Assembly (NCBI GenBank): GCA_964016885.1
Contig: OZ024742.1
Location: 289,478,001-289,542,000, forward strand
Direction of reading: 5' to 3'
DNA: 64,000 nt
From: Eledone cirrhosa
Taxonomy: Eukaryota
The notes beneath the pieces are model-generated. The model saw only the letters and a program-made list of their open reading frames with translations, was not told where the DNA came from and made no database searches. The translations under genes were made by a program, and so were the position numbers. Shown here one piece after another: positions 1,959 through 60,921 of the stretch. Every line of letters begins with the position of its first letter. Positions within the stretch are counted from its first letter, which is position 1.

Positions 1959-2807
1959 TAGATCACCTAGGTAGCAGAAGCTATCAACCACTTCTATGAA
2001 TCCTTCCTGGGTTTGGAAAAAGTTTACTTACTTTCCTGATGCTCTTACTGCTAACTATCCCTGTGCATCTGTTACATACAAAGTCTACTTTTTATATTAG
2101 CCTGCCTGCTATCCCACTCCATCTCTTGTGCTCCATTGATTTTCATTGTGTACATTGTATAGAGTTTCTGTTTACTCCTTTTCTACATACTGAGCTTGGC
2201 TTCAATCAGGGTCCTATCTTCTTTCTCACTAAAACTTTTGTCAACTGGTATATCAGATAAGATCTTACATCACTAATGTTTATGCAAGTAAAAAACTATT
2301 TGATGAGATTGTGTCTGAATATTACTTAACAGATGCCATCAAAATACATATAACAGTGATTAAGTAATAAATAGAATGTGGTGAAATTCAAACATACTGT
2401 CTTCTAATTCGTTATTATATAGTGTTGTTATTTCTGTTTACCTTTTACATACATATATATATATATGTGATATATATGTTGTTGTTGTTAGAATTCAACC
2501 TATATAGCTTTAGTTGGCCTCCTATGAGGTTACAATACAAGAGTTTTCTTGTTTTAAAGATTGGGGGGGGGGGGGGCCTCCAGTTTTATCACATACATGT
2601 TGCTGTTGTTAGAATTCCCACCTATGTAGGTTTAGCTGGTCTTCTATGAAATTTCATCTCAGGAGGTTTCTTGGGTATTTCAATGATAGGTGCCCTTGTA
2701 TCATGTAAAGCCAAAGCCTACCTCTTCATTTCCAGGCACCAGTATTATTATGACTCAATGATGAATGTGAAAGCAATGAAGCAAGAATGTTAAAAAGAAA
2801 TACTCAC

Positions 2808-2860
2808 TGCTTAGGATCCATATCCTTCGTTGGAGGCTCAAATGTTTGTGATTGTGTGAA
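2808..2860 (-). CDS. Exon G, coiled-coil gene
   Basis: acaaaAG|TTC ACA...AAG CA|GTgagt; 53 bp, phase 0->2; FTQSQTFEPPTKDMDPK. Supplies the phase shift required by exon H; the AAG acceptor is weak. Confidence 0.7.
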
Positions 2861-2983
2861 CTTTTGTAGCAGATGTGGTTTGTATGAAATAAAAACAATA
2901 CTATATCAACCAGATACATTTACAGGGATTCATATAGATGTTATATAACAATATGAATGCATATAAATATAGCATAAGATGTA

Positions 2984-5900
2984 CTCATATAGAAATAGTA
3001 TAACATGAAGTCATATAGATATAGTATAACATGGAGTCATATAGATATAGTATAACATGGAGTCATATAGATATAGTATAACATGGAGTCATGTAGATAT
3101 AGTATAACATGGAGTCATGTACATATAGTATAACATGGAGTCATGTACATATAGTATAACATGGAGTCATGTAGGTATAGTATAACATGGAGTCATGTAG
3201 GTATAGTATAACATGGAGTCATGTACATATAGTATAACATGGAGTCATGTAGATATAGTATAACATGGAGTCATGTAGGTATAGTATAACATGGAGTCAT
3301 GTACATATAGTATAACATGGAGTCATGTACATATAGTATAACATGGAGTCATGTAGGTATAGTATAACATGGAGTCATGTAGATATAGTATAACATGGAG
3401 TCATGTAGGTATAGTATAACATGGAGTCATGTAGATATAGTATAACATGGAGTCATGTAGGTATAGTATAACATGGAGTCATGTAGGTATAGTATAACAT
3501 GGAGTCATGTACATATAGTATAACATGGAGTCATGTAGATATAGTATAACATGGAGTCATGTAGATATAGTATAACATGGAGTCATGTAGATATAGTATA
3601 ACATGGAGTCATGTAGGTATAGTATAACATGGAGTCATGTAGGTATAGTATAACATATAATCATATAGATATAGTATAACATGGAGTCATGTAGATATAG
3701 TATAACATGGAGTCATGTAGGTATAGTATAACATGGAGTCATGTAGATATAGTATAACATGGAGTCATGTAGATATAGTATAACATGGAGTCATGTAGGT
3801 ATAGTATAACATGGAGTCATGTAGGTATAGTATAACATGGAGTCATGTAGATATAGTATAACATGGAGTCATGTAGATATAGTATAACATGGATTCATGC
3901 AGATATAGTATAACATAGTCATGTAGATATAGTATAACATGGAGTCATGTAGATATAGTATAACATGGAGTCATGTAGGTATAGTATAACATGGAGTCAT
4001 GTAGGTATAGTATAACATGGAGTCATGTAGGTATAGTATAACATGGAGTCATGTAGATATAGTATAACATGGAGTCATGTAGGTATAGTATAACATGGAG
4101 TCATGTAGATATAGTATAACATGGAGTCATGTAGGTATAGTATAACATGGAGTCATGTAGATATAGTATAACATGGAGTCATGTAGGTATAGTATAACAT
4201 GGAGTCATGTAGATATAGTATAACATGGAGTCATGTAGATATAGTATAACATGGAGTCATGTAGGTATAGTATAACATGGAGTCATGTAGATATAGTATA
4301 ACATGGAGTCATGTAGGTATAGTATAACATGGAGTCATGTAGGTATAGTATAACATGGAGTCATGCAGATATAGTATAACACATAGTCATGTAGATATAG
4401 TATAACATGGAGTCATGTAGATATAGTATAACATTGAGTCATGTAGGTATAGTATAACATGGAGTCATGTAGATATAGTATAACATGGAGTCATGTAGGT
4501 ATAGTATAACATGGAGTCATGTAGATATAGTATAACATGGAGTCATGTAGGTATAGTATAACATGGAGTCATGTAGGTATAGTATAACATGGAGTCATGT
4601 AGGTATAGTATAACATGGAGTCATGTAGGTATAGTATAACATGGAGTCATGTACATATAGTATAACATGGAGTCAAGTAGATATAGTATAACATGGAGTC
4701 ATGTAGATATAGTATAACATGGAGTCATGTACATATAGTATAACATGGAGTCATGTACATATAGTATAACATGGAGTCATGTAGGTATAGTATAACATGG
4801 AGTCATGTAGGTATAGTATAACATGGAGTCATGTACATATAGTATAACATGGAGTCATGTACATATAGTATAACATGGAGTCATGTAGGTATAGTATAAC
4901 ATGGAGTCATGTAGATATAGTATAACATGGAGTCATGTAGGTATAGTATAACATGGAGTCATGTAGATATAGTATAACATGGAGTCATGTAGGTATAGTA
5001 TAACATGGAGTCATGTAGGTATAGTATAACATGGAGTCATGTACATATAGTATAACATGGAGTCATGTAGATATAGTATAACATGGAGTCATGTAGATAT
5101 AGTATAACATGGAGTCATGTAGATATAGTATAACATGGAGTCATGTAGGTATAGTATAACATGGAGTCATGTAGGTATAGTATAACATATAATCATATAG
5201 ATATAGTATAACATGGAGTCATGTAGATATAGTATAACATGGAGTCATGTAGGTATAGTATAACATGGAGTCATGTAGATATAGTATAACATGGAGTCAT
5301 GTAGATATAGTATAACATGGAGTCATGTAGGTATAGTATAACATGGAGTCATGTAGGTATAGTATAACATGGAGTCATGTAGATATAGTATAACATGGAG
5401 TCATGTAGATATAGTATAACATGGAGTCATGTAGATATAGTATAACATGGATTCATGCAGATATAGTATAACATAGTCATGTAGATATAGTATAACATGG
5501 AGTCATGTAGATATAGTATAACATGGAGTCATGTAGGTATAGTATAACATGGAGTCATGTAGGTATAGTATAACATGGAGTCATGTAGGTATAGTATAAC
5601 ATGGAGTCATGTAGATATAGTATAACATGGAGTCATGTAGGTATAGTATAACATGGAGTCATGTAGATATAGTATAACATGGAGTCATGTAGGTATAGTA
5701 TAACATGGAGTCATGTAGATATAGTATAACATGGAGTCATGTAGATATAGTATAACATGGAGTCATGTAGGTATAGTATAACATGGAGTCATGTAGATAT
5801 AGTATAACATGGAGTCATGTAGGTATAGTATAACATGGAGTCATGTAGATATAGTATAACATGGAGTCATGTAGGAATAGTATAACATGGAGTCATGTAG

Positions 5901-6898
5901 GTATAGTATAACATGGAGTCATGCAGATATAGTATAACATATAGTCATGTAGATATAGTATAACATGGAGTCATGTAGATATAGTATAACATTGAGTCAT
6001 GTAGGTATAGTATAACATGGAGTCATGTAGATATAGTATAACATAGAGTCATGTAGGTATAGTATAACATGGAGTCATGTAGATATAGTATAACATGGAG
6101 TCATGTAGGTATAGTATAACATGGAGTCATGTAGGTATAGTATAACATATAGTCATATAGATATAGTATAACATGGAGTCATGTAGGTATAGTATAACAT
6201 AGTCATATAGATATAGTATAACATGGAGTCATGTAGATATAGTATAACATGGAGTCACATAGGTATAGTATAACATGGAGTCATGTAGATATAGTATAAC
6301 ATGGAGTCATGTAGGTATAGTATAACATGGAGTCATGTAGGTATAGTATAACATGGAGTCATGTAGATATAGTATAACATGGAGTCATGTAGGTATAGTA
6401 TAACATGGAGTCATGTAGATATAATATAACATGGAGTCATGTAGGTATAGTATAACATGGAGTCATGTAGATATAGTATAACATGGAGTCATGTAGGTAT
6501 AGTATAACATGGAGTCGTGTAGATATAGTATAACATGGAGTCATGTAGGTATAGTATAACATGGAGTTATGTAGATATAGTATAACATGGAGTCATGTAG
6601 GTATAGTATAACATGGAGTCATGTAGGTATAGTATAACATGGAGTCATGTAGGTATAGTATAACATATAGTCATATAGATATAGTATAACATGGAGTCAT
6701 GTAGATATAGTATAACATGGAGTCATGTAGATATAGTATAACATGGAGTCATGTAGGTATAGTATAACATGGAGTCGTGTAGATATAGTATAACATGGAG
6801 TCATGTAGGTATAGTATAACATGGAGTCATGTAGATATAGTATAACATGGAGTCATGTAGGTATAGTATAACATGGAGTCATGTAGATATAGTATAAC
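2984..6898. repeat. 26-bp minisatellite, about 150 units (GATATAGTATAACATGGAGTCATGTA)
   Basis: Direct tandem repeat with GA/GG/CA variant units. Confidence 0.97.
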
Positions 6899-6941
6899 AA
6901 TATGATTAAAGACAAAAATAGATATAAAAAACACAGTTAGA

Positions 6942-13719: not shown

Positions 13720-15110
13720 CTTTCTAGCACACCCATGGCCACCATGAGGTTCCCCTGTTTAGCTGATGTAGCTGCTATTTCTAGCTCAACTAATGACCAC
13801 CATGAGGATCTCTATTTAGCTGTTACTTCTAGCACACCTATGGACCACCATGAGGTGCCCTCTATTCAGCTAATATTTCTAGCACACCAATGGACCATAA
13901 AGTGGTTCCCCTGTTTAGCTGATGTAGCTGCTATTTCTAGCACACCTATGAACCACCATGAGGTACCCCCTATTTAGCTGCTTTCTTTAGCACACCTATG
14001 GGCCCCCACAACGTTCCCTATTTTAAGCTGGTATTTCTAGCACACCTATAGACCACTATGAGATTCACCCTGTTTAGCTGATAAAGTTGCTAATTCTAGT
14101 ACACCTATTGACCAAAATGTGATTCCCCTTATTTCGCTGCTATTTCTAGCACACCTATGGACCACCATGAGATTCCCCCTATTTAGCTGTTATTTCTCGC
14201 ACACCTATGGAACACTGAGTTTCCCTCTGTTTAGCTGATGTAGCTGCTACTTCTAGCACACCCATAGACCACTATGAGGTTCCCTTATTTAGCTGCTATT
14301 TCTAGCACACCCATAGGCCAATATGACGTTCCTCTATTTAGCTGCTATTTCTAGCACACCTATGGACCACCAAGAGGTTCTATCTCTAGCATACAATTGG
14401 ATCACTATTAGCTTCCCCTATTTAGCTGCTATTTCTCGCCCATCTATGGGACACTATGAGTTTCCCCCTGTTAAGCTGATGTAGCTGCTATTTCTAGCAC
14501 ACCCATGGGCCAATATGACGTTCCTTATTTAGCTGCTATTTCTAGCACACCTAAGAACCACCAAAAGGTTCCCCAGTTTAACTGATGTAGCTGCTATTTC
14601 TAGCACACCTATGGACAACCATGAGGTTGCTCCTACTTAGCTGCTATTTCTAGCACATCTATGGCCACCATGAGGTTCCTCTGTTTAGCTGCTATTTATA
14701 ACACACCTATTGACCACCGTGAGGTTCCCCTATTTAGCTACTATTTCTCGCACACCTATGGACTACCATGAGGTTCCCCCTGATTAGCTGATGTAGCTGT
14801 TATTTCTAACACACTTACAGACCACCATACATTTCCCCTATTTAGCTACTATTTCTAGCACACCTATGGACAACCACAAGGTTCCCCCTATTTAACTGCT
14901 ACTTCTAGCACACCTATGGACCACCATGAGGTGCCCTCCATTTAGTTAATATTTCTAGCACACCTATGAACCTCTATTTCTAGCATACCTTTGGACCACC
15001 ATTAGGTTCCCCCTATTTAGCTACTATTTCTAGCACACCTATGGACTATCATGAGATTCCTCCTATTTAGCCGCTATTTCTAGCACACCTATGTACCACC
15101 ATGAGGTTGC
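13720..15110. repeat. About 50/59-bp degenerate minisatellite (TTTCTAGCACACCTATGGACCACCATGAGGTTCCCCCTATTTAGCTGCTA)
   Basis: More than 25 tandem units; the long variant adds GATGTAGCT. Confidence 0.92.
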
Positions 15111-25527: not shown

Positions 25528-25531
25528 ATAC

Positions 25532-25620
<89 letters not shown>

Positions 25621-25633
25621 CATATATATATAC

Positions 25634-25884
<251 letters not shown>

Positions 25885-25927
25885 CATATATATATACATA
25901 TATATATACATATATATACATATATAC

Positions 25928-25979
<52 letters not shown>

Positions 25980-25988
25980 TTATACATA

Positions 25989-26038
<50 letters not shown>

Positions 26039-26141
26039 GCGGCGATGAATTAGTTTTGCGAGGTTTTTTATAAACATCACCAACACGAGCGAAGTTGCAC
26101 AACTAACACACGATGGGAGAGAAAAAATCCTCAACGCTCAC

Positions 26142-28133
26142 ATGATGATGTGGACTGACATCCTAAAGCCAAGCAGACGCACTGCCAACAACTTCCAGGC
26201 GTCTAACAATGGCATGCCACCCTTGTATGGGCTCCGCAAAGACCACAAGACAGTCGACGACCCGACAACAGGACCACCAACAAGACCCGTATGCGGAGCT
26301 AATATAGCTAGCAACTACAGGATCTCCTACTTCCTCTCAATGGTTATACGCCCCATAATCAAGATGTCCCCAGATGTATGTGAAAGTACAGAGGACCTCC
26401 TCAGCAGAATCAGTGAGTGCAACAAAAACAGGAGCCTATCCAACTGCATAATAGGCAGCATGGATGTGGTGTCACTGTACCCATCCATTAACATTGATTT
26501 TGCTGTGAAAAGATGTGTGGAGATGATCATTGAGAGTGAGGTGGAGTTCTGCGACGTCGACACAGACGAACTGGGCCTCCTACTTAGACTTACCTACGAC
26601 ACTGACTACCTAGACAGCCATGACCTTAGATGTTTCTGCCCTAGTAGACCTATAAGAGGTAGACCCCCCACCATAACCTCAATGGCTAAAAAGACTCCCA
26701 TAGGAAGGTGGATTGGGTGGACCAAAGCTATACGGACCCCCCAAAACACTGATCAGGTAAGAAAAATGGTCGCACATGCAATAGGGGCTAGTATCAAAAC
26801 TACCCTAAAGGGCCACATATTTAAGTTCAATGAGAAAATCTACACCCAAAATGAGGGAGCAGCCATCGGCGTCAGCATAGCTGGTGATGTTGCCAACCTT
26901 TTCATGGTATGGTGGGAAAGGAGACTTAAAGATCTCCTTAATGAAAGCTCCATAGACCTCATCATGTACTCTCGTTATGTAGACGATATCAATATAGTTA
27001 TAAGAACACCCCCACTAGAGAGCACTAACAAGTTTGATTTAGAACGTAGCACGATGGAAAGCATCCAGCAGATAGCTAATTCCATACACCAGAGTATAAC
27101 TGTAACTATAGACTTCCCTTCCAAACACCCTAACAATAGACTACCTGTATTAGACACAGAACTCTGGATTAACACTATAGACGAGAGAGCCCAAATTCTC
27201 CACTCACACTATGCTAAACCCATGGCCTCCAAATACCTGATACTCAAAAACTCAGCAATGTCCAGTAGTGCTAAGTTTAATATTCTGATCGCAGATTTGG
27301 TACGAGTGATGAAGAATGTGTCCAGCATGTGCGACCCAACAGAAATGGAAGGACACATCCAACACTTCATCAACCGCATGCAGTTCTCTGGCTACAACCA
27401 AAGAGACAGAGTCAGAGTATACGAAGGAGCCATGGAAAAGTATAAGACCCTCATAGAACTGGACATGAAAGGAATTTGCCCACTATACAGGAGCAAATCA
27501 TGGAATAGCTTAGATAGGGCTAGACATAAGATAGGGAAGGCCACATCATGGTACGACAACCAGAGATATCAGAGTGTCATGTTTGTGGACGCCACCCCTG
27601 GAGGGAAATTAGCTAACCAGTGTAGAAAGGCCCTGAGAAAGACCCACTTAAAAATAAAGGTGGTAGAAAAGCCAGGAACCACCATAAAATCCCTGATCAG
27701 CAAAACCTACCCTTTTAAGAAAACCCACTGTACCAATAGGAAATGTATCATATGTAAGGTGAACCCCCGGATAAACTGTAAAACTAGAAACGTAGTCTAT
27801 AGCATAAGATGTACAGAGGGTACTTGCAGAAACACGACAACAACATACATAGGTGAGACAGCTCGTAGCATAGGTGAAAGGATAGACCAACACTGGGGGG
27901 AACTAAAAGGACGAAAAAACGGGTCAGTACTATACGAACATGCTAGACAACAACATGACGGTAACATAGACGACATAGAAATTAGAATAATATCTAAACA
28001 TAGGAATGACCCAGCAGATAGGCAAATCAGAGAGGCCAGTGAAATAGAAATTAGAAGACCAAAGCTAAACAGAAAGAATGAGTGGCACAACAACAACACC
28101 CAAACAAACAACACTGACCTAAGAGAAGTATAA
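26142..28133 (+). CDS. PLE reverse transcriptase + Cys-rich linker + GIY-YIG endonuclease (intact frame, N-terminus truncated)
   Basis: PPLYGLRKDHK, PTRPV, SMDVVSLYPSI, GAAIG, RYVDD, LPVLD, VVYSIRC...YIGETAR...H...H...R..EA..I.....LN. Confidence 0.92.
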   Translation: MMMWTDILKPSRRTANNFQASNNGMPPLYGLRKDHKTVDDPTTGPPTRPVCGANIASNYRISYFLSMVIRPIIKMSPDVCESTEDLLSRISECNKNRSLSNCIIGSMDVVSLYPSINIDFAVKRCVEMIIESEVEFCDVDTDELGLLLRLTYDTDYLDSHDLRCFCPSRPIRGRPPTITSMAKKTPIGRWIGWTKAIRTPQNTDQVRKMVAHAIGASIKTTLKGHIFKFNEKIYTQNEGAAIGVSIAGDVANLFMVWWERRLKDLLNESSIDLIMYSRYVDDINIVIRTPPLESTNKFDLERSTMESIQQIANSIHQSITVTIDFPSKHPNNRLPVLDTELWINTIDERAQILHSHYAKPMASKYLILKNSAMSSSAKFNILIADLVRVMKNVSSMCDPTEMEGHIQHFINRMQFSGYNQRDRVRVYEGAMEKYKTLIELDMKGICPLYRSKSWNSLDRARHKIGKATSWYDNQRYQSVMFVDATPGGKLANQCRKALRKTHLKIKVVEKPGTTIKSLISKTYPFKKTHCTNRKCIICKVNPRINCKTRNVVYSIRCTEGTCRNTTTTYIGETARSIGERIDQHWGELKGRKNGSVLYEHARQQHDGNIDDIEIRIISKHRNDPADRQIREASEIEIRRPKLNRKNEWHNNNTQTNNTDLREV

Positions 28134-28401
28134 ATAAATAAGTAAATTAAATAAAATAAAATAAGATAAATAAATACATACACAAGCACATAAACACACA
28201 CTAGTCACCCAGCAGACACAACACTATACACACTAGTCACACATCACACATAACACTATACACACACGCAAACGCATGCGCAAAGAAGACAAAATAAAAT
28301 AAGATAAACAAACAAGCAAATAAATAAATAAATATATAGACAGACTGAACAAAAAAAAATGGCGTAGACATACAACACAACAGGAGGAACAATGAATATA
28401 A

Positions 28402-28445
28402 CACCACTGACGATGTTGCAGATGTGCAACGAAAGATTTATGTAA
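28402..28445 (+). ncRNA. Hammerhead-ribozyme-like motif in the PLE 3' region (copies at 33867-33910 and 60131-60176)
   Basis: CTGACGA-T-GTTGCA-gatg-TGCAAC-GAAA-GATT-TA; stem I is only 2 bp, so activity is uncertain. Confidence 0.6.
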
Positions 28446-28656
28446 ATTATGTAAACTATATATATATGTGTTTGTCTATATTGTATCTGTATTATTTTTG
28501 ACCGCCGGTCAGTCAATGGCAACATTGAGGACCGAGTAAGTTAGATCGCAGATATATATATATAAAAGACAGCGAGAAGCGAAAACCAACCAAACAGTGA
28601 GTGTGTTCTGTTATTAATTCTGGCAATATTACGCAAATATGACCCTCCCCAAATAT

Positions 28657-28706
<50 letters not shown>

Positions 28707-29179: not shown

Positions 29180-29838
29180 TTTTATACTCTGGGAGGGTCA
29201 TGTTGCCAATAAGAAACACACGCACCAGTTGCTTTCACTCCAATTTATTATAAATTAAATTATAAATTTAAAAATTTATAAATTTCCAGTTGGTTGGTTG
29301 GTTGGTTGGTTGGTTCCACAACCGGACGGTTGTTCATATATTGTCAAAGTTCTTTCGTCACACATTCTGTGACCTCTTCAGTGACTGGGGATTCCTTTCT
29401 TTGTTTTGTGCCTCTCCTTTGTTCTGTCCTATGCCATCTTGTTTTCGTGTGTGTTGTGTGCTTAGTTTGCACATGTGTTACATCTGGGTGTCTGTGTGTG
29501 TTTTTATTTGTTTATTTATTTGTTTATTTATATGTTACTGGTTGGTTGTTTGTTCTATGTGTGTGTATTTTCATTTTGTCCTTAATTGTAAGTTGTGATG
29601 TTGCTATTCCATTCATGTTTTCTATTTAATTTTGGTTGGAGTTCATTTATGTTTATTGCCTCTGTGATTTGTCTAAACATTGCGTCTTTTCTGTGTGTAG
29701 ATTTTATTTTTATTTCTATGTTCTCTAATTTGCCCTTATGTTCTATTTTAGCATGTTGGTGGAGTACAGATGATTCTTGACTATTTTGAAGCTCTCGCCA
29801 GTGTTCATTTAATCGTTTTCCTATACTACGAGCTGTCT
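29180..29838 (-). mobile_element. Second PLE family, 3' fragment (GIY-YIG C-terminus + 3' region)
   Basis: TARSIGKRLNEHW...HQHA...FRQITEAININELQPKLNRKHEW aligns with the end of the 26142 ORF; terminus catgaccctcccagagtataa. Confidence 0.88.
29343..29385 (-). ncRNA. Minimal type-I hammerhead ribozyme motif
   Basis: GTCA-CTGAAGA-G-GTCACA-gaatg-TGTGAC-GAAA-GAAC-TT-TGAC: 4-bp stem I, intact core, 6-bp stem II, vestigial stem III. Confidence 0.72.
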
Positions 29839-31758: not shown

Positions 31759-34109
31759 TGACGACCCGACAACAGGACCACCAATAAGACCCGTATGCGG
31801 AGCTAATATAGCTAGCAACTACAGGATCTCTTACTTCCTCTCAATGGTTATACGCCCCATAATCAAGATGTCCCCAGATGTATGTGACAGTACAGAGGAC
31901 CTCCTCAGCAGAATCAGTGAGTGCAACAAAAACAGGAGCCTATCCAACTGCATAATAGGCAGCATGGATGTGGTGTCACTGTACCCATCCATTAACATTG
32001 ATTTTGCTGTGAAAAGATGTGTGGAGATGATCATTGAGAGTGAGGTGGAGTTCTGCGACGTCGACACAGACGAACTGGGCCTCCTACTTAGACTTACCTA
32101 CGACACTGACTACCTAGACAGGCATGACCTTAGATGTTTCTGCCCTAGTAGACCTATAAGAGGTAGACCCCCCACCATAACCTCAATGGCAAAAAAGACT
32201 CCCATGGGAAGGTGGATTGGGTGGACCAAAGCTATACGAACCCCCCAAAACAATGATCAGGTAAGAAAAATGGTTGCACATGCAATAGGGGTTAGTATCA
32301 AAACTACCCTAAAGGGCCACATATTTAAGTTCAACGAGAAAATCTACACCCAAAATGAGGGAGCAGCCATCGGCGTCAGCATAGCTGGTGATGTTGCCAA
32401 CCTTTTCATGGTATGGTGGGAAAGGAGACTTAAAGATCTCCTTAATGAAAGCTCCATAGACCTCATCATGTACTCTCGTTATGTAGACGATATCAATATA
32501 GTTATAAGAACACCCCCACTAGAGAGCACTAACAAGTTTGATTTAGAACGTAGCACGATGGAAAGCATCCAGCAGATAGCTAATTCCATACACCAGAGTA
32601 TAACTGTAACTATAGACTTCCCTTCCAAACACCCTAACAATAGACTACCTGTATTAGACACAGAACTCTGGATTAACACTATAGACGAGAGAGCCCAAAT
32701 TCTCCACTCACACTATGCTAAACCCATGGCCTCCAAATACCTGATACTCAAAAACTCAGCAATGTCCAGTAGTGCTAAGTTTAATATTCTGATCGCAGAT
32801 TTGGTACGAGTGATGAAGAATGTGTCCAGCATGTGCGACCAAACAGAAATGGAAAGACACACCCAACACTTCATCAACCGCATGCAGTTCTCTGGCTACA
32901 ACCAAAGAGACAGAGTCAGAGTATACGAAGGAGCCATGGAAAAGTCTAAGACCCTCATAGAACTGGACATGAAAGGAATTTGCCCACTATACAGGAGCAA
33001 ATCATGGAATAGCTTAGATAGGGCTAGACATAAGATAGGGAAAGCCACCTCATGGTACGACAACCAGAGATATCAGAGTGTCATGTTTGTGGATGCCACC
33101 CCTGGAGGGAAATTAGCTAACCAGTGTAGAAAGGCCCTGAGAAAGACCCACTTAAAAATAAAGGTGGTAGAAAAGCCAGGAACCACCATAAAATCCCTGA
33201 TAAGCAAAACCTACCCTTTTAAGAAAACCCACTGTACCAATAGGAAATGTATCATATGTAAGGTGAACCCCCGGATAAACTGTAAAACTAGAAACGTAGT
33301 CTATAGTATAAGATGTACAGAGGGTACTTGCAGAAACATGACAACAACATACATAGGTGAGACAGCTCGTAGCATAGGTGAAAGGATAGACCAACACTGG
33401 GGGAAACTAAAAGACGAAAAAACGGGTCAGTACTATACGAACATGTTATACAACAACATGACGGTAACATAGACAACATAGAAATTAGAATAATATCTAA
33501 ACATAGAAATGACCCAGCAGATAGGCAAATCAGAGAGGCCACTGAAATAGAAATTAGAAGACCAAAGCTAAACAGAAAGAATGAATGGAATAACAACAAC
33601 ACCTAAACAAACAACACTGACATAAGAGAAGTATAAATAAGTAAATAAAATAAGATAAATAAATACATACACAAGCACAATAACAACAAGCACATAAACA
33701 CACACTAGTCACCCATCACACAGCAAACATAACACTATACACACACGCAAACGCATGTGCAAAGAAGACAAAATAAAATAAACAAACAAGCAAATAAATA
33801 AATAAATATATAGACAGACTGAATAAAAATGGCGTAGACATACAACACAACAGGAGGAAAATATAACACCACTGACGATGTTGCAGATGTGCAACGAAAG
33901 ATTTATGATAAACTATATATATGTGTTTGTGTCTATATTGTATCTGTATTATTTTTGACCGTCGGTCAGTCAATGGCAACATTGAGGACCGAGTAAGTTA
34001 GATTACCGATATAAAAGACAGCGAGAAGCGAAAACCAACCAAACAGTGAGTGTGTTCTGTTATTAATTCTGGCAATATTACACAAATATGACCCTCCCCA
34101 AGTATAACA
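31759..34109 (+). mobile_element. Second copy of PLE family 1, 5'-truncated, frameshifted in the endonuclease near 33410
   Basis: ORF 31844..33472 is nearly identical to 26142..28133; same 3' terminus. Confidence 0.93.
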
Positions 34110-34118
34110 ACATACATA

Positions 34119-37649: not shown

Positions 37650-40525
37650 ATCATCATCATCATCATCATCAACGTTTAACGTCCGTGTTCCACGCTTGCA
37701 TGGGTTTGGACGGGGGTAGTCCCACTTGAGGCAAGAGTGATTGTCTTGCTCGCATAGGACTGTCTGGCAGGTTTTCTACAGTTGGATGCCCTTCCTAACA
37801 CCAACCACATTTACAGTGTGGGTCTGGGAGGTTTTTACCGTGTTGCCTACACGGCCACATTACAGCGTGGACTGTGTGTTTTTTTGTCGTGACACCTACA
37901 CGATCTCGTTTGTTTCGGCCTGGATGGCGCGGCACCAACATAACTTTACATGGAACGGGGTGGTGTGGATGGGGTGGGGGTGGTGGCGGGACGGGGTGTA
38001 GTTTGTTAGAGATGCCTACTGGCAAGGCGGGTCTTCTCTGTTACTGAGTACCGCCAAAGGTCACGGTCCAGTGACATTGTCTTGGAGAGGTGTAAGTGTA
38101 TGAGGTCGGAGTTTATCAGCTCATCCCATGTTTTTCTAGGTCTGCCTATTCCGTGGCTACCGTCTATCTTTATTGCCCTGCACTTTGTAATACAGCTATC
38201 GACTTTCATGCGCATCACGTGTCCATACCAACGCAGCCTTCTCTCGAGTAAACAACATCTGATCCCTCTTATCTCTAATTTTTTCCTTAGTTCGTTTATG
38301 CTTTGCCGTTCACGTATATTACTGTTACACATCCAGCGGAGCATGCAAGCTTCGTTCCTCTCTAGTCTGCGTATATCCTCTGCACACAATGCCCAGGTCT
38401 CACTACCATGCAACATTGCTGTTCGTATGCAGGCATCGTACAACCTGCCTTTCATTTTTAGGGAGAACCCTTTAGCAGCTAATAGTGGTATAAGCTCTCT
38501 GAACTTTTTCCAACCAGTTCTGACTCTAGCTACAGTACTTTCAGAGCACCCTCCCCCACTGCTGATTTTATCGCCCAGGTAACGGAAGCTGTCCACTATT
38601 TCTATAGAACCCTCTGCGCAATTGAAAGAGCTAGTATTTTGTGGGCACTTGCTGCTACTTATTGCACCAGAACATCGGCCACATGTAAAGTCTATGTTCT
38701 TAGTTAGCTTACCTGTGATCCCACTACATCTTTTATGCACCCATACTTTGCATTTAGGACATAAGATGGAGTTTCTACCTACGCCTTTCCTACATACCGA
38801 GCACGACCATTTCCCAGAAGGGACCGCCGCCTTGTTTTCTTTCCTACAAACTAGAACTTTGGTCTTAGCCAGGTTAATTTTAAGTCCTTTTGACTCTAGG
38901 CCGTGCTTCCATGTTTGGAATTTCTTCTCTAGCTCGGCCATTGATTCCGCTATGAGTGTCAGGTCGTCTGCGTATAGGAGTTCCCATGGGCAGCCTGTCT
39001 TGAACTCCTCTGTTATAGCCTGAAGGGCAATAATAAATAGTAGGGGGCTGAGAACAGAGCCCTGATGGACGCCAACTTTTACGATAAACTCTTCACTATA
39101 TTCGTTGTTAATTCTAACCTTGCTGACTGTTTCTTTATACATGGCTTGTATAGCCCTCACAAGCCATTCGTCAACGCCTAGTTTTCTAAGAGCCCACCAG
39201 ATAATGGAGCGGGGGACTCTGTCGAAGGCTTTCTCCAGGTCGACAAAAGCTAAGTAGAGGGGTTTACCTTTAGCTAGGTACTTCTCCTGTAGTTGTCGTA
39301 CTATGAAAAGAGCGTCTGTGGTACTTTTGCCTGACACAAACCCGAACTGCATTTCATCTAGATCAATTCTCTCTCTGATTAGTTGCGCTATTACTTTTTC
39401 CGTGACCTTCATGACCTGGTCGATTAATTTAATGCCTCTATAGTTACTCCTATCTAGGGCGTCTCCTTTACCCTTATAACAGTTAACGATGATGCTGCTA
39501 TGCCAGTCCTTCGGAACAACCCCATTCTGTACGACTTGGTTAACTATGCGGGTGACCATGGTGTGTCCCACCGTGCCAGATGCCTTCAGCATCTCAGCAA
39601 CTATTTCCGAAGGCCCAGCCGCCTTACCAGTCTTCATATCCTTGATTGCCTTACTTATTATACTCCCCTCGACTAACACTGCTGGTCCCTCTATCGGGTC
39701 GATATGGGGGAGACTGTCTTTCTCCCATTTATTCTCCTCATTTAGTAGCCTTTCATAGTGACACTTCCAAGCTACCTTCTTATCAGTGTCGGTGATGGCA
39801 AGTATGCCATCATCGTTAAGTACACACTTCTCCCCGACAATATCACGGTTTTCCTTGACGCATTGCCTGGCAATCCTGAACACCTCACGTTTTTGGTCAT
39901 CGCGTTGTAGAACATGCTTGAACTTTCTTTCCTCCGCTTCCCTTCTTGCTAAGTACACTTCTCTCCTAGCTTCCCTCCTGGCCACTTGATAGTCTACTCT
40001 ACTTCCCCCATCCCGCCATACTTTCCAAGCCTGCTTTTTGGCCTTAATTGACCCCTCCACCCTATTGTTCCACCACCATGTTACTCTCCTCCTGCCTACA
40101 GGCCTGCTCCAGCCACAGACCTCGTCTGTCGCCAACAGCAGGTTTGCTTTCAGAAATTTCCACTGTCCCTCTATATTGTCCGATTTTAGATGCTCTTCCT
40201 TACTGTCGAAAGCATCAAGTAATATGCTTTGAAATTTATTTCTGGCTGTGGGGTCCTTTAGTTTCCATATTTTCCTCCTGAGGATAGTCCTCTTCTGCTG
40301 TCGGGTACGTCTCGTCCTGACTATGAGGTCGCTAATTATCAGTCTATGTTGGGAGGTGCATTCTTCATGGGGGAGGGATTTAGTGTTTACAACAGACACT
40401 CTGTCACGTCTTCTGGTAAGGATATAATCTACCTGGCTTGTGTGTTCCCCGGATCTATAGGTAATCAGGTGATTGTCACGTTTTTTGAAGTTAGTGTTAC
40501 AGATAGTTAGGTTATTTGCATCACA
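37650..40525 (-). mobile_element. RTE LINE, 5'-truncated within the endonuclease, remaining ORF open
   Basis: [45 protein letters not shown]-like finger, WYGHV; (CAT)n tail. Confidence 0.95.
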
Positions 40526-40630
40526 TATATATATGTATGTATATGTATATATATATGTATGTGTATATATATATATGTATGTGTATATATATATGTGTAT
40601 ATATGTGTATATATATATATGTATGTGTAT

Positions 40631-40680
<50 letters not shown>

Positions 40681-40852
40681 ATGTATATATATACGTATGT
40701 GTATATATATATATGTATGTATATGTATATATATATGTATATATATATATGTATGTATATGTATATATTTTAGTCTTTAATTTATTATTATTACTATATA
40801 TATATATATATGTATGTATATGTATATATTTTAGTCTTTGATTTATTATTAT

Positions 40853-40903
<51 letters not shown>

Positions 40904-40964
40904 CATACATATATATATATATATATACATATACATACATATATATATATATACATATACATAC

Positions 40965-40995
<31 letters not shown>

Positions 40996-41042
40996 CATAT
41001 ACATACATATACATACATATATATATATACATATACATACAT

Positions 41043-41089
<47 letters not shown>

Positions 41090-41176
41090 CATATATATAT
41101 ATATACATATATATATATACATACATATATATATATATACATATATATACATATACATATATATATATATATACAT

Positions 41177-41207
<31 letters not shown>

Positions 41208-41234
41208 CATATACATACATATATATATATACAT

Positions 41235-41287
<53 letters not shown>

Positions 41288-42732
41288 CATCAGGGCTCTG
41301 TTCTCAGCCCCCTACTATTTATGATTGCCCTTCAGGCTATAACAGAGGAGTTCAAGACCGGCTGCCCATGGGAACTCCTATACGCAGATGACCTAACACT
41401 CATAGCTGAATCAATGGCCGAGCTAGAAAAGAAATTCCAAACATGGAAGCACGGCCTAGAATCAAAAGGCCTTAAAATTAACCTGGCTAAGACTAAAGTT
41501 CTAGTTTGTAAGAAAGAAAATAAGGCGGCGGTCCCCTCCGGGAAATGGCCATGCTCAGTGTGTAGGAAAGGGGTAGGTAGAAACTCCATTTTGTGTCCCA
41601 AATGCAAAGTATGGGTGCATAAAAGATGTAGTGGGATCACAGGTAAGCTAACTAAGAACATAGATTTTACATGTGGCCGGTGCTCTGGTTCAATAAGTAG
41701 CAGCAAGTGCCCACAAAATACTAGCTCTTTCAACTGCGCAGAGGGTTCTATAGAAATAGTGGACAGCTTCCGTTACCTGGGTGACAAAATCAGCAGTGGG
41801 GGAGGGTGCTCTGAAAGTACAGTAGCTAGAGTCAGAACTGGATGGAAAAAGTTCAGAGAGCTTATACCACTATTAGCCGCTAAAGGGTTCTCCCTAAAAA
41901 TGAAAGGCAGGTTGTATGATGCCTGCATACGAACAGCAATGTTGCATGGCAGTGAGACCTGGGCATTGTGTGCAGAGGATATACGCAGACTAGTGAGGAA
42001 CGAAGCTTGCATGCTCTGCTGGATGTGTAATAGTAATATACGTGAACGGCAAAGCATAAACGAACTAAGGAAAAAATTAGAAATAAGAGGGATCAGATGT
42101 TGTTTACTCGAGAGAAGGCTATGTTGGTATGGTCACGTGATGCGCATGAAAGTCGATAGCTGTATAACAAAGTGCAGGGCAATAAAGATAGACAGTAGCC
42201 ACGGAATAGGCAGACCCAGAAAAACCTGGGACGAGCTGATAAATTCCGACCTCACACACTTACACCTCTCCAAGATAATGTCACTGGACCGAGACCTTTG
42301 GCAGTACTCAGTAATAGAGAAGACCCGCCTTACCTAAATACAAAGTAACATCTACTACAGTCAGTAGGCATCTCTAACAAAATACACCCCCATCCCACCA
42401 CCCCCACCCCATCCACACCGCCCCTTTCAATGTAAAGTTATGTTGGTGCCACAACATCCAGGCCGAAACAAATGAGATCGTGTAGGTGTCACGACAAAAA
42501 AAAAACACACAGTCCACGCTGTAATGTGGCCGTGTAGGCAACACGGTAAAAACCTCCCAGCCCCACACTGTAAATGTGGTTGGTGTTAGGAAGGGCATCC
42601 AGCTGTAGAAAACCCGCCAGACAGTCCTATGCGAGCAAAACAATCACTCTTGCCTCAAGTGGGAAAACCCCCGTCCAAACCCATGCAAGCGTGGAACACG
42701 GACGTTAAACGTTGAAGATGATGATGATGATA
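41288..42732 (+). mobile_element. 5'-truncated RTE LINE
   Basis: Starts at HQGSVLSP; ORF ends TRLT*; (ATG)n tail. Confidence 0.95.
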
Positions 42733-42738
42733 ATACAT

Positions 42739-42813
<75 letters not shown>

Positions 42814-42824
42814 CATACACATAT

Positions 42825-44719
42825 ATCATCATCATCATCATAATCAACGTTTAACGTCCGTGTTCCACGCTTGCATGGGTTTGGACGGGGGTTTTCCCAC
42901 TTGAGGCAAGAGTGATTGTCTTGCTCGCATAGGACTATCTGGCGGGTTTTCTACAGCTAGATGCCCTTCCTAACACCAACCACATTTACAGTGTGGGGCT
43001 GGGAGGTTTTTACCGTGTTGCCTACACGGCCACATTACAGCGTTGACTGTCTGGCAGCGTGGGCTGTAGTAGGTTTTACTTTGTATTTAGGTAAGGCGGG
43101 TCTTCTCTATTACTGAGTACCGCCAAAGGTCTCGGTCCAGTGACATTGTCTTGGAGAGGTGTAAGTGTGTGAGGTCGGAATTTATCAGCTCGTCCCAGGT
43201 TTTTCTGGGTCTGCCTACTCCGTGGCTACCGTGTATCTTTATTGCCCTGCACTTTGCTATACAGCTGTCGTCTTTCATGCGCATCACGTGACCATACCAA
43301 CGTAGCCTTCTCTCGAGTAAACAACATCTGATCCCTCTTATTTCTAATTTTTTCCTTAGTTCGTTTATGCTTTGCTGTTCGCGTATATTACTATTACACA
43401 TCCAGCGGAGCATGCAAGCTTCGTTCCTCTCTAGTCTGCGTATATCCTCTGCACACAATGCCCAGGTCTCACTGCCATGCAACGTTGCTGTTCGTATGCA
43501 GGCATCATACAACCTGCCTTTCATTCTTAGGGAGAACCCTTTAGCGGCTAATAGTGGTATAAGCTCTCTGAACTTTTTCCAACCAGTACTGACTCTAGCT
43601 ACTGTATTTTCAGAGCACCCTCCTCCACTGCTGATTTTGTCGCCCAGGTAATGGAAGCTGTCCACTATTTCTATAGAACCCTCTGCGCAATTGAAAGAGC
43701 TAGTATTTTGTGGGCACTTGCTGCTACTTATTGCACCAGAGCACCGGCCACATGTAAAATCTATGTTCTTAGTTAGCTTACCTGTGATCCCACTACATCT
43801 TTTATGCACCCATACTTTGCATTTGGGACATAAAATGGAGTTTCTACCTATGCCTTTCCTACACACTGAGCATGGCCATTTCTCGGAAGGGACCGGCGCC
43901 TTATTTTCTTTCCTACAAACTAGAACTTTAGTCTTAGCCAGGTTAATTTTAAGGCCTTTTGATTCTAGGCCGTGCTTCCATGTTTGGAATTTCTTCTCTA
44001 GCTCGGCCATTGATTCAGCTATGAGCATTAGATCATCTGCGTATAGGAGTTCCCATGGTCAGCCGGTCTTGAACTCCTCTGTTATAGCCTGAAGGGCAAT
44101 AATAAAAAGGAGGGGGCTAAGAACAGAGCCCTGATGGACACCAACTTTTACGCTAAACTCTTCACTATATTCGTTGTTAATTCTAACCTTGCTGACTGTT
44201 TCTTTATACATGGCTTGTATAGCTCTCACAAGCCATTCGTCAACACCTAGTTTTCTAAGAGCCCACCAGATAATGGAACGGGGGACTCTGTCGAAGGCTT
44301 TCTCCAAGTCAACAAAAGCTAAGTATAGGGGTTTACTTTTAGCTAGGCACTTCTGTAGTTGTCGTACAATGAAAAGAGCGTCTGTGGTACTTTTGCCTGA
44401 CGCAAACCCGAACTGCATTTCATCTAGATCAATTCTCTCTCTGATTAGTTGCGCTATTACTTTTTCCGTGACCTTCATGACCTGGTCGATTAATTTAATG
44501 CCTCTATAGTTACACCTATCTAGGGCATCTCCTTTACCCTTGTAACAGTTAATGATGATGCTGCTACGCCAGTCCTTCGGAACAACCCCATTATGTATGA
44601 CTTGGTTTACTATCCAGGAGACCATGGTGTGTCCCACCATTCCAGAGGCTTTCAGCATCTCAGCAACTATTTCCGAAGGCCCAGCCGCCTTACCCGCCTT
44701 CATAACTTTGATTGCCTTA
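42825..44719 (-). mobile_element. 5'-truncated RTE LINE with an internal stop near 44059 and a shortened 3' UTR
   Basis: ORFs 44059..44775 and 43087..44028. Confidence 0.93.
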
Positions 44720-44724
44720 TACAT

Positions 44725-44755
<31 letters not shown>

Positions 44756-44759
44756 CATA

Positions 44760-47700
44760 ACGAGAATGCGAGCACTCCTCATTGTTTCGACCGCGGACGG
44801 CTAACATAACCCCATCGCACCCCGCCCCCCACCACCCCCAACCCCCAAACGCAATCCAAAACTTCAGAGTTGGTACCATAAATGTAGGCACCCTAAAGGG
44901 TCGCGCTAACGAGGTTGTAGAAATGCTTGAACGTAAGGAGGTCGATGTTTGTTGTATTCAAGAGACCAGGTGGAGGGGTGGGTCTGCTAGATTCATTGAG
45001 GGTAAAAAACGATGTTATAAGCTTTTCTGGGTGGGAAACGACGATGGGCTGGGTGGAGGAGGAATCATGGTAGCAGAAAAGTGGGCAGATAAGATAATAG
45101 ACGTAAATAGAGTGAATGACAGAATAATTAAAATACGACTTGTCCTCAATAGAACTACGGTGACAGTAATATCTGCGTACGCACCCCAATCCGGACAGCC
45201 CGGCACTATAAAAGACAGATTCTATGAGACACTGATGCTAACTACCTCCCAAATATCCGACAGTGACTATATAATTATTGCAGGCGACCTAAATGGTCAC
45301 GTTGGACAACATTGTGACGGCTACGACGAAATCCATGGAGGCTATGGGTTTGGTACTAGAAATGAGGAAGGCTCCAGAATCCTGGAATTCTGTGATGCAA
45401 ATAACCTAACTATCTGTAACACTAACTTCAAAAAACGTGACAATCACCTCATCACCTATAGATCCGGGGAACACACAAGCCAGGTAGATTATATCCTTAC
45501 CAGAAGACGTGACAGAGTGTCTGTTGTAAACACTAAATCCCTCCCCCATGAAGAATGCACCTCCCAACATAGACTGATAATTAGCGACCTCATAGTCAGG
45601 ACGAGACGTACTCGACAGCAGAAGAGGACTATCCTCAGGAGAAAAATATGGAAGCTAAAGGACCCCACAGCCAGGAATAAATTTCAAAGCATATTACTTG
45701 ATGCTTTCGACAGTAAGGAAGAACATTTAGAGTCGGACAATATAGAGGGAGAGTGGGAATTTCTGAAAGCAAACCTGCTGTTGGCGACAGACAAAGTCTG
45801 TGGCTGGAGCAGGCCTGTAGGCAGGAGGAGAGTAACATGGTGGTAACAGTAAGGTGGAGGGGTCAATTAAGGCCAAAAAGCAGGCTTGGAAAGTATGGCG
45901 GGATGGGGGAAGTAGAGAAGACTATCAAGTGGCCAGGAGGGAAGCTAGGAGACAAGTGTACTTAGCAAGAAGGGAAGCTGAGGAAAGAAAGTTCAAGCAT
46001 GTTCTACAACGCGATGACCAAAAACGTGAGGTGTTCAGGATTGCTAGGCAATGCGTCAAGGAAAACCGTGATATTGTCGGGGAGAAGTGTGTACTAAACA
46101 ACGATGGCACACTTGCCATCACCGACGCTGATAAGAAGGTAGCTTTGAAGTGTCACTATGAAAGGCTACTAAATGAGGAGAATAAATGGGAGAAAGACAG
46201 TCTTCCCCATATCGACCCAATAGAGGGACCAGCAGTGTTAGTCGAGGGGAGTATAATAAGTAAGGCAATCAAGGATATGAAGACGGGTAAGGCGGCTGGG
46301 CCTTCGGAAATAGTTGCTGAGATGCTGAAGGCATCTGGCACGGTGGGACACACCATGGTCACCCGCATAGTTAACCAAGTCGTACAGAATGGGGTTGTTC
46401 CGAAGGACTGGCATAGCAGCATCATCGTTAACTGTTATAAGGGTAAAGGAGACGCCCTAGATAGGAGTAACTATAGAGGCATTAAATTAATCGACCAGGT
46501 CATGAAGGTCACGGAAAAAGTAATAGCGCAACTAATCAGAGAGAGAATTGACCTAGATGAAATGCAGTTCGGGTTTGTGTCAGGCAAAAGTACCACAGAC
46601 GCTCTTTTCATAGTACGACAACTACAGGAGAAGTACCTAGCTAAAGGTAAACCCCTCTACTTAGCTTTTGTCGACTTGGAGAAAGCCTTCGACAGAGTCC
46701 CCCGCTCCATTATCTGGTGGGCTCTTAGAAAACTAGGCGTTGACGAATGGCTTGTGAGGGCTATACAAGCCATGTATAAAGAAACAGTCAGCAAGGTTAG
46801 AATTAACAACGAATATAGTGAAGAGTTTAGCGTAAAAGTTGGCGTCCATCAGGGCTCTGTTCTCAGCCCCCTACTATTTATTATTGCCCTTCAGGCTATA
46901 ACAGAGGAGTTCAAGACAGGCTGCCCATGGGAACTCCTATACGCAGACGACCTGACACTCATAGCGGAATCAATGGCCGAGCTAGAGAAGAAATTCCAAA
47001 CATGGAAGCACGGCCTAGAGTCAAAAGGACTTAAAATTAACCTGGCTAAGACAAAGTTCTAGTTTGTAGGAAAGAAAACAAGGCGGCGGTCCCTTCTGGG
47101 AAATGGTCGTGCTCGGTGTGTAGGAAAGGCGTAGGTAGAAACTCCATTTTATGTCCTAAATGCAAAGTATGGGTGCATAAAAGATGTAGTGGGATCACAG
47201 GTAAGCTAACTAAGAACATAGATTTTACATGTGGCCGGTGTTCTGGTGCAATAAGTAGCAGCAAGTGCCCACAAAATACTAGCTCTTTCAATTGCGCAGA
47301 GGGTTCTATAGAAATAGTGGACAGCTTCCGTTACCTGGGCGATAAAATCAGCAGTGGGGGAGGGTGCTCTGAAAGTACAGTAGCTAGAGTCAGAACTGGT
47401 TGGAAAAAGTTCAGAGAGCTTATACCACTATTAGTTGCTGAAGGGTTCTCCCTAAAAATGAAAGGCAGGTTGTACGATGCCTGCATACGAACAGCAATGC
47501 TGCATGGCAGTGAGACCTGGGCATTGTGTGCAGAGGATATACGCAGACTAGAGAGGAACGAAGCTTGCATGCTCCGCTGGATGTGTAACAGTAATATACG
47601 TGAACAGCCAAGCATAAACGAACTAAGGAAAAAATTAGAGATAAGAGGGATCAGATGTTGTTTACTCGAGAGAAGGCTACGTTGGTATGGACACGTGATG

Positions 47701-48283
47701 CGCATGAAAGTCGATAGCTGTATAACAAAGTGCAGGGCAATAAAGATAGACGGTAGTCATGGAATAGGCAGACCTAGAAAAACCTGGGACGAGCTGATAA
47801 ACTCCGACATCACACACTTACACCTCTCCAAGACAATGTCACTGGACCGAGACCTTTGGCGGTACTCAGTAACAGAGAACCTTACCTAAATATATAGTAA
47901 AACCTACTCCAGCCAGTAGGCATCTCTAACAAAATACACCCCGTCCCACCACCACCACCCCCACCCCATCCACACCACCCCGTGTTATGTAAAGTTATGT
48001 TGGTGCCACGCCATCCAGGCCGAAACAAATGAGATCGTGTAGGTGTCACGACAAAAAAAACACACAGTCCACGCTGTAATGTGGCCATGTAAGCAACACG
48101 GTAAAAACCTCCCAGACCTACACTGTAAATGTGGTTGGTGTTAGGAAGGGCATCCAACTGTAGAAAACCTGCCAGACAGTCCTATGCGAGCAAGACAATC
48201 ACTCTTGCCTCAAGTGGGACTACCCCCGTCCAAACCCATGCAAGCGTGGAACACGGACGTTAAACGTTGATGATGATGATGAT
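44760..48283 (+). mobile_element. Near-complete RTE LINE coding region (APE + RT) with two frameshifts (about 45845 and 47050)
   Basis: GTINVGTL, CCIQETRW, SAYAPQ, AGDLNGHVG, VDYIL, then RT motifs across ORFs 44782, 45854 and 47116; (ATG)n tail. Confidence 0.95.
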
Positions 48284-48469
48284 ATATATATATATATATA
48301 CATACATATATATATATACATATACATACATAATATATATATATACATACATAATATATATATATATACATACATATATATATATATATATACATATACA
48401 TACATATTATATATATATACATACATAATATATATATATATACATACATATATATACATATATATACAT

Positions 48470-48512
<43 letters not shown>

Positions 48513-48583
48513 CATACATAATATATATATATATATATACATACATATATATATATATACATACATAATATATATATATATAT

Positions 48584-48614
<31 letters not shown>

Positions 48615-48824
48615 AAAGAGAAAATTGAGAGTGTATAACACTCAACTTATCAGATATATATATATATATATATATACATACATAATATATATATACATAC
48701 ATAATATATATATACATATACATACATAATATATATATACATATACATACATAATATATATATATATACATACATATATATATATATATACATATACATA
48801 CATAATATATATACATATACATAC

Positions 48825-48873
<49 letters not shown>

Positions 48874-48876
48874 TAT

Positions 48877-48921
<45 letters not shown>

Positions 48922-48974
48922 TATATACATACATATATATATATATACACATATATATATACATACATATATAT

Positions 48975-49027
<53 letters not shown>

Positions 49028-49030
49028 CAT

Positions 49031-52000: not shown

Positions 52001-52345
52001 AACAAAGAGGAGTGCTCGCATTGTCGTCCACGAGGTGAATTTGACTTTAACTTTGGCATTTTCGCTCTGAGCGTCCAGATTTTTCTCTCCCTTCCACTCT
52101 CCAGGATTCCGCAGTCCGTCCATCCATCCATCCATCCATCATATATCGAAGGCAACCGGGCAAGCGATAGTATAGGCCTCTGGCTTATGATTGATCCGCG
52201 TAATAATAATAATGGTGATGCGTGGGGGGGGGGGCTCTGGCTTATAATAATAATGGTGATGCGTGGGGGGGGCTCTGGCTTATGATTGGTCCACGTATTA
52301 AGTATGGTGGTGTGTGGCGGCGGGTGGGAGGGGTGTGGGGTAGCT
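49031..52345 (-). mobile_element. RTE LINE retaining its 5' UTR; open ORF with a 510-bp in-frame deletion in the endonuclease
   Basis: ORF 49387..52155 joins QNFR directly to ILEFCDAN. Confidence 0.94.
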
Positions 52346-60003: not shown

Positions 60004-60008
60004 CATAA

Positions 60009-60376
60009 CGGCGATGAATTAGTTTTGCGAGGTTTTGATATGAAATCGTGTGTCTAAAAAAATATTGTGGTGCTATTATGTTTCTTCCCGTTGGCGTAGG
60101 CATACAATACAACGGGAGGAAACATAATAGCACCACTGACGATGTTGTTGTAGATGTGCAACGAAAGAACTTTGTTAGACTATATATATGTCTTTGTGTC
60201 TATATTGTATCTGTATTTTTGACCGTTGGTCAGTCAATGGTAACATTGAGGATCGAATAAATTAAATTAACTGATATAAAAGACAGAGAAGCGAAAACCA
60301 ACCAAACAGTGAGTGTGTGCTGTTATTAATTCTGGCAATATAATTACACAAATATGACCCTCCCCAAGTATAACAA
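60009..60376 (+). mobile_element. Diverged PLE family 1 3'-terminal fragment with a short 5' inversion
   Basis: Homologous to 28360-28660; 27-bp arm at 60066-60092 is the reverse complement (one mismatch) of 60109-60136. Confidence 0.85.
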
Positions 60377-60921
60377 TATATATACATACATATATATATA
60401 TATACATATATATACAGTTGAAAATTGGAAACTTGACTGTCACCACTGAATATGAACCTGAAGATTGCGAAAGCATGAAAGTACTTGTTCAATTAACATT
60501 TAACATTTAATATTCTACCATACTATTTCATTATAATATCATTATAATTTTAAAGGATTGTAAATAAAACGAGTAAATCAGACAAAGTTGGAATTCCTTT
60601 TATTAATATACATATATATATATATATACATACATATATATATATGCATATATATACATATATATACATACATATACATATATATACATACATATATATA
60701 TGTAAGTATGTATATGTCCATACATATATGTATACAGACGTACAGTAGTATGTATATACATACATACATGCACACACATATATATGTACGTATGGGTTTA
60801 CCGAACATTTATTATAATGCTCGGTTTGTTTGTAAACAAACAGCCCGAATTATAAGCTGTACAGTGTTCGGCAACCATCGTTGCCATTTTGTTCAACACT
60901 GACAAAGGAACGATGAATTAG

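Follow-up and report, generated by a model that had tools for sequence, protein, structure and literature searches.

The 28-nucleotide sequence at Penelope-like element junctions in Eledone cirrhosa is the element's own tail on an inverted arm

Described tails and the insertions in the window

Penelope-like elements (PLEs) are known to carry a short extension at their ends. In the consulted parts of the published descriptions, the PLE tail was reported for Pen2a_Av of Adineta vaga, where it lies on one inverted end and measures 31 bp (PMC3846280), and a tail of 30-40 bp, often at one end only, is given in PMC8557442, which defines the clades by motif and is the source of the CCHH and CX2-5CxxC definitions used below. 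According to the consulted parts of an in vitro study, the tail corresponds to the interval between two start sites of the reverse transcriptase (RT); the study also finds cutting and extension of both strands and predicts a dimer (PMC11167929). Short 3' extensions also appear as a curation feature in the consulted part of PMC8969392.

The window, by which we mean the whole analyzed stretch of 64,000 nucleotides (assembly GCA_964016885.1, contig OZ024742.1, positions 289,478,001 to 289,542,000 of the forward strand), contains exactly two matches with 0 mismatches to a 28-nt sequence, the 28-mer, both on the + strand, at 26040-26067 and 60009-60036. Two matches were obtained in 0 of 100 shuffles of the window. 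Both copies follow (TA)n-rich target arrays (25528-26038 and 59586-60007), as the original prediction had stated, and its description of the surroundings was also accurate. The first 28-mer leads into the middle of a PLE reading frame, in a body 99% identical to the reference unit; the second precedes a short inverted arm and a diverged 3' region, which is an 83%-identical fragment with a short palindrome; and the copy at about 31760 is without the 28-mer, the best match to the tail there having 14 mismatches in 28 positions. From this the prediction derived a constant cap, made by a dedicated 5'-joining module or a small RNA template, for which it knew of no description. A trans-acting cap would have been new, but the 28-mer is not one. 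It is the published Penelope-like "tail" on an inverted arm, an ordinary feature of these elements and no foreign cap; the tail is found in the consulted parts of PMC3846280 and PMC8557442, and the two RT start sites in those of PMC11167929.

Insertion 1 begins with an inverted tail-bearing arm at 26039..26072 (- strand), consisting of the G at 26039, the 28-mer and 5 further nt, and antisense to about codons 17-28 of the element's open reading frame (ORF). Its 33 nt are 100% identical to unit positions 4147>4115, and at most 3 more bases (26036-26038) could be either element or TA target. Since this arm is tail sequence only, the original prediction had found no match for the 28-mer within the window. 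The tail-less forward arm (26074..28664, + strand) is a 5'-truncated PLE that covers unit 1494-4093 at 99% identity, and its frame for the RT plus, at the C-terminus, a GIY-YIG-type endonuclease is open to the stop at 28131-28133. A hammerhead-like core in the pLTR was recognized by eye at 28407..28434 (+ strand): the core letters CUGA-N-GA and GAAA are present and, of the stems, the 6-bp stem II folds. In Rfam, nothing reached the gathering threshold for the window or for locus L007, and the stretch 28300-28700 yielded no hammerhead, only AT-rich chance matches. The first ~8 ORF codons lie inside the pLTR (28639..28664, + strand) and end at the proximal, tail-less 3' end, after which a TA array begins.

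Insertion 2 (31760..34114, + strand) is single-armed, 5'-truncated and tail-less, corresponding to unit 1677-4093 at 95%; a search for a tail arm at this insertion found none. Insertion 3 has an inverted tail-bearing arm at 60008..60068 (- strand), which comprises the tail in full (54 nt) with some 6 nt from the end of the pLTR and belongs to an older lineage (92% to the unit). It is followed by a second short inverted piece at 60069..60093 (- strand), which is palindromic with about 60110-60134 where the arms meet, and by a tail-less forward arm at 60092..60379 (+ strand) that contains pLTR only (unit 3798-4093, 83%) and ends in a TA array. The bodies after the two 28-mers are about 81% alike when the 60009 fragment is compared with the 26040 copy. 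Outside the edges of the 28-mer the two copies differ, each flanking base being typical of its own body's lineage, and the base before the 28-mer is element-derived in both (G at 26039, A at 60008). The shared 28 nt are exact in both copies as claimed, but the module is longer: from the 28-mer onward, antisense element sequence runs for 33 nt at 26040 and for 60 nt at 60009.

Other repeats are present in the window. A second PLE family, ~70% identical and having a conserved tail region, is represented by a fragment at 29448-29838 (- strand), and its fragments recur near first-family copies (L133, L152, L167, L181 and L183). Several LINE copies on both strands, having an AP-type endonuclease, an RT and, behind it, a PHD finger, occupy 38006-52365 and 62441-64000. 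A minisatellite with a 26-bp period and about 152 copies is found at 2960-6899, an array of ~50-bp units at 13721-15108, and a tandem repeat of ~636 bp at 52627-56147, the last deduced from the intervals between recurring TRF rows and ORFs.

The element and the origin of the 28-mer

An intact ORF of 1,208 aa that includes the 28-mer-coding start is present at L112:1469-5095, and three tandem 4,147-nt units stand behind a truncated copy at L128-L129. In unit coordinates the ORF starts at position 4068, the usual 3' end is at 4093, i.e. 26 nt later, and the 28-mer occupies 4120-4147. Read as the reverse complement, codons 18-27 of the element's own ORF give the 28-mer, which ends 54 nt past the usual 3' end. 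The original prediction had proposed to locate it in full-length elements, and it is indeed found in all three tandem units; it is internal there, lying as its in-frame reverse complement on the sense strand at the ORF start, just after the pLTR end. The statement that the 28-mer is not the reverse complement of the 3' terminus is correct for the tail-less 3' end in the window and fails for the extended (tailed) 3' end, where the 28-mer lies 27-54 nt beyond the tail-less one. We take its identity between copies to reflect a conserved coding stretch, which is probably cis-acting as well.

The Atlas neighbours of the element's protein, at 0.96-0.97, have the domains HTH_animal, RVT_1 and GIY-YIG, the latter in 28-47% of members. 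A match of the window protein P0001 to RVT_1 had E=1e-4, which is below Pfam's cut-off, and Pfam gave no match at E 0.1 on the full ORF; a PDB sequence search returned one weak RT match (E=0.045). The VVY...YIG core can be read directly in P0001, and by eye a CCHH motif is seen, with two Cys within the GIY-YIG core and His residues downstream. A CX4CxxC linker upstream of the endonuclease fits the CX2-5CxxC definition. On the motifs of this core and linker, P0001 places the element with the Neptune/Nematis-type EN+ PLEs, a motif assignment that does not tell Neptune and Nematis apart. The other features of EN+ PLEs are also found: a single ORF with RT and C-terminal GIY-YIG, the CCHH motif, tandem pLTRs including the ORF start, an adjacent inverted 5'-truncated copy (a second arm in 66 of 85 tail-anchored insertions), and a short tail at one end only (in 82 of 85 two-armed insertions). 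The ORFs of L112 and L128-L129 also contain a ~170-residue Asn-rich stretch N-terminal to the RT, and one frameshift is common to the three tandem units of L128-L129 and absent in L112 and in the window copy.

In the genome, 2,719 exact copies of the 28-mer were counted, compared with 0 copies of the reversed control; 2,003 of them directly follow TA letters and 308 stand in a read-through context. In the first 30 loci the 28-mer is nearly always continued by the element's 3' end in reverse complement. For a closer tabulation, two samples were taken, both consisting of the first listed places on one contig and not of random draws. The tail-anchored sample comprises 97 of the first 100 listed 28-mer places with long flanks, the other three being the tandem locus. 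The tail-less-anchored sample comprises 60 of the 8,799 tail-less ends in the genome, with one of five tandem repeats taken. The original prediction had asked for a tabulation of what follows the 28-mer; in the tail-anchored sample it is the antisense element in 97/97 places. The 28-mer is terminal on an inverted arm in 86 of these and inside a read-through copy in 11; 83 of the terminal copies come after TA and 3 after other sequence. The terminal arms range from 35 to 5,958 nt (median 358), with 9/86 at <=60 nt, and the two window arms of 33 and 60 nt represent the short end of this continuum. The tail arm is also about equally often the long or the short arm, being shorter than its tail-less partner in 27/56 insertions (p=0.89), and the two lengths are uncorrelated (rho 0.03); a cap specific to the 5' junction does not agree with this.

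Neither is the 28-mer constant as an end. In 80/86 terminal copies the ORF is continued by the 4 letters preceding it, which puts the true boundary 1-4 nt farther outward. When the tailed partners of the 60 tail-less-anchored insertions were examined, 14 end at the 28-mer position, 13 end 9-11 nt inside it and 3 in between, which gives a tail of 43-58 nt. The exact 28-mer is present in 7 of the 14 long-tail ends found in this way, i.e. without using the 28-mer. The shorter end, 9-11 nt inside the 28-mer, has 2,282 exact copies genome-wide and is about as common as the longer one. Tail-only arms go down to 10-14 nt (L160, L176). All mapped ends fall on TA/AT letters of the element RNA, where the boundary is ambiguous through TA slippage, and target duplications are not readable in TA arrays. 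RNA folding of the tail region gave no significant structure (z 0.14 and 0.37). At four loci (L051, L086, L097 and L121), the two arms break off at, or immediately beside, the poly(A) tract in the 3' region (unit ~3760-3790) and form near-perfect palindromes; this tract is a possible hot spot of RT stopping.

Pairing of ends, arm junctions and mechanism

The two arms of an insertion, of any length, stand head to head, and their ends are paired in a strict manner. In the 85 distinct tail-anchored insertions the partner is tail-less in 59, tailed in 2, of another kind in 5 and lacking in 19. In the 60 tail-less-anchored insertions it is tailed in 30, tail-less in 1, mid-tail in 1, of another family in 1 and lacking in 27. 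With the 7 shared insertions counted once, one tailed and one tail-less end are combined in 82 of 85 two-armed insertions; the same-end pairs are three (L039, L048 and L137). An independent choice of priming site is rejected by Fisher's test (p=2e-17, with the 7 shared insertions removed and with labels that are partly hand-curated). L040 (the same insertion as L039), L184 (a 72%-identical related-family partner), L171 (which ends mid-tail) and 5 tail-anchored loci whose second arm ends elsewhere were dropped or relabelled by hand before counting. L036, L044 and L071 were moved to the tail-less partners and L048 to the tailed ones, and L160 and L176 were added as very short tails. L048 and L049, near-duplicates with different far ends, were both kept. 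These two lie 9.5 kb apart (G000:C1:36.13-36.15 Mb) and have the same 148-nt tail arm and junction, whereas the far end is a short tail in L048 and tail-less in L049. In L184 (G000:C1:37336205-37343704), a 3.96-kb tail-less arm, about 90% identical to the unit and with its junction about 3,960 nt from the tail-less end, abuts head to head a related-family arm (72% to the unit) that has its own tail. A single insertion with priming on two different RNAs could explain this locus, as could a nested insertion accompanied by a deletion.

Both arms of one insertion come from the same template lineage. They differ by a median of 1.3%, compared with 5.8% between insertions (57 testable of the 82), and only 1 of the 57 is worse than the median. 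Diagnostic bases present only in the tail arm match the lineage of the body in 67/71 cases, and conversion between the arms cannot explain this agreement. Of 47 simple junctions, 25 show an arm overlap of 1-12 nt, 19 contain filler and 3 are blunt. In 23/47 the start of the tail-less arm lies >40 nt upstream of the point at which the tail arm ends, which excludes a fold-back copy, and the tail arm in turn has letters missing from the tail-less arm. In another 12/47 the arm ends lie within 40 nt of each other, which a fold-back could also give.

With a probability of about 0.93, we read the 28-mer as the outer end of the inverted arm of a two-armed PLE insertion, antisense to codons 18-27, which is likely to arise when the RT primes on the second nicked strand, using a start site that lies 43-58 nt downstream of the first one. 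The predicted fixed second priming site is thereby kept in substance; the site is on the element's own RNA and has already been published as the PLE tail. For the priming steps we infer a course with the Poseidon-clade lizard element of PMC11167929 as the model. The element protein would bind a tandem transcript close to the ORF start, and the GIY-YIG domain would nick both strands of the TA array. The two 3'-OH ends would then serve as primers, with one cDNA beginning at the proximal site and the other within the distal cluster; 2-4 nt of TA pairing may assist. Both cDNAs would stop at random points, and the two truncated products would be joined head to head via short overlaps or filler. A distal cDNA that stops after about 30-60 nt would leave only tail sequence and look like a foreign cap; the very short inverted arm likely arose because copying began a second time on RNA of the element itself. 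Against this reading count the many single-armed insertions (19/85 tail-anchored and 27/60 tail-less-anchored), the three same-end pairs, the 12/47 junctions that a fold-back could also give, a tail longer than the published 30-40 nt, and a tail region that folds into no significant structure, unlike the stem-loop reported for the lizard element.

The mixed pairs in 82/85 two-armed insertions further suggest that priming is coupled on both target strands. A dimer on one template lineage may direct one strand to the proximal site and the other to the distal site 43-58 nt away, with same-end pairs almost excluded (3/85), and the longer spacing may be a clade-specific geometry of this linker-type family. 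We regard this coupled arrangement as an even bet.

On the other hand, the PLE tail could have another origin, with only one RT start site and a tail-less end produced later, when the endonuclease resolves a hairpin or fold-back. Asymmetric resolution would also be expected to give one end of each kind (82/85), and the palindrome at 60069-60134 and the 12/47 near-symmetric junctions fit such a course. In 23/47 junctions, however, each arm has sequence absent from the other and neither is a simple copy, and two start sites were demonstrated in vitro for a relative, according to the consulted parts of PMC11167929. We consider this origin unlikely, at something like one chance in five. Trimming of a second, independently primed arm is possible.

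A small RNA of separate origin, or a constant module dedicated to 5' joining, is very improbable as a source of the 28-mer in trans. What had spoken for it is that the 28-mer is identical in two window copies with bodies about 81% alike, but all 97 sampled copies continue as element sequence, the flanking and internal tail bases follow the body's lineage (67/71), only half of the long-tail ends found independently (7/14) have the exact 28-mer, 2,282 ends stop inside it, and it encodes part of the ORF. Least probable of all is that an unrelated element which targets TA ends in the 28-mer, or that copies have their genuine 5' end there and lost internal parts later: the 28-mer does adjoin TA arrays in 83/97 loci, but it is antisense to the ORF of the same element and in the full-length tandem units it is internal, on the sense strand and not at the 5' end, and a later deletion could have shortened an individual arm without changing its identity.

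Comparison with known systems

The thousands of young insertions of one family are a large natural data set which constrains how PLE integration is completed: two start sites are used once each per insertion, and the arm lengths are mutually independent. For annotators there is also a warning, as the tail-only arms, down to 10-14 nt (L160, L176), resemble foreign caps. The tail itself is already known, and one-sided tails have been described qualitatively in print. In openly accessible literature listings and the consulted parts of the papers cited here, a search for a per-insertion pairing count, for evidence against simple fold-back or for a PLE twin-priming model found none.

In LINE-1 twin priming, both target strands prime cDNA, and head-to-head arms are joined by microhomology; one primer is at the poly(A) end and the other at a variable internal site, and the arms do not overlap. 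The insertions described here are similar in their head-to-head arms, their microhomology joins and, as we infer, the priming by both strands. They differ in that both arms start from fixed sites 43-58 nt apart, such that the same sequence is copied.

A comparison was also made with PLEs, within what the consulted parts of the respective papers describe. When compared to Poseidon_Ac (PAc) of Anolis carolinensis (PMC11167929), our element shares the AT-rich targets and, to judge from the genomic ends, would share two internal RT start sites near the ORF start with both strands cut and extended. PAc has a hammerhead in the pLTR, where our element has a hammerhead-like motif seen by eye, with no Rfam match. 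The differences are that PAc is in the Penelope/Poseidon clade and is without the CX2-5CxxC linker present here, that its start sites lie in a stem-loop whereas the tail region here has no significant fold, and that its sites are reported to have no homology to the target whereas every end here adjoins TA/AT letters.

The similarity to Pen2a_Av (PMC3846280) is close in structure. In both elements the pLTR includes the first ORF codons and the tail adds about ten or more (from 12 to 22 aa in Pen2a_Av and from about 8 to 27 here), and both have the tail on one inverted end, an Asn-rich insert within the ORF, and partial tandems as well as palindromes at the junctions. The tail of Pen2a_Av is 31 bp, compared with 43-58 nt in two main sub-ends here; the targets here are (TA)n arrays without readable duplications, and the Asn-rich stretch here is N-terminal to the RT. 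The tail is also longer than the 30-40 bp stated for Neptune/Nematis-type EN+ PLEs in the consulted part of PMC8557442. The addition to what is in print is modest: a strict pairing of one end of each kind (82/85) and a longer tail (43-58 vs 30-40).
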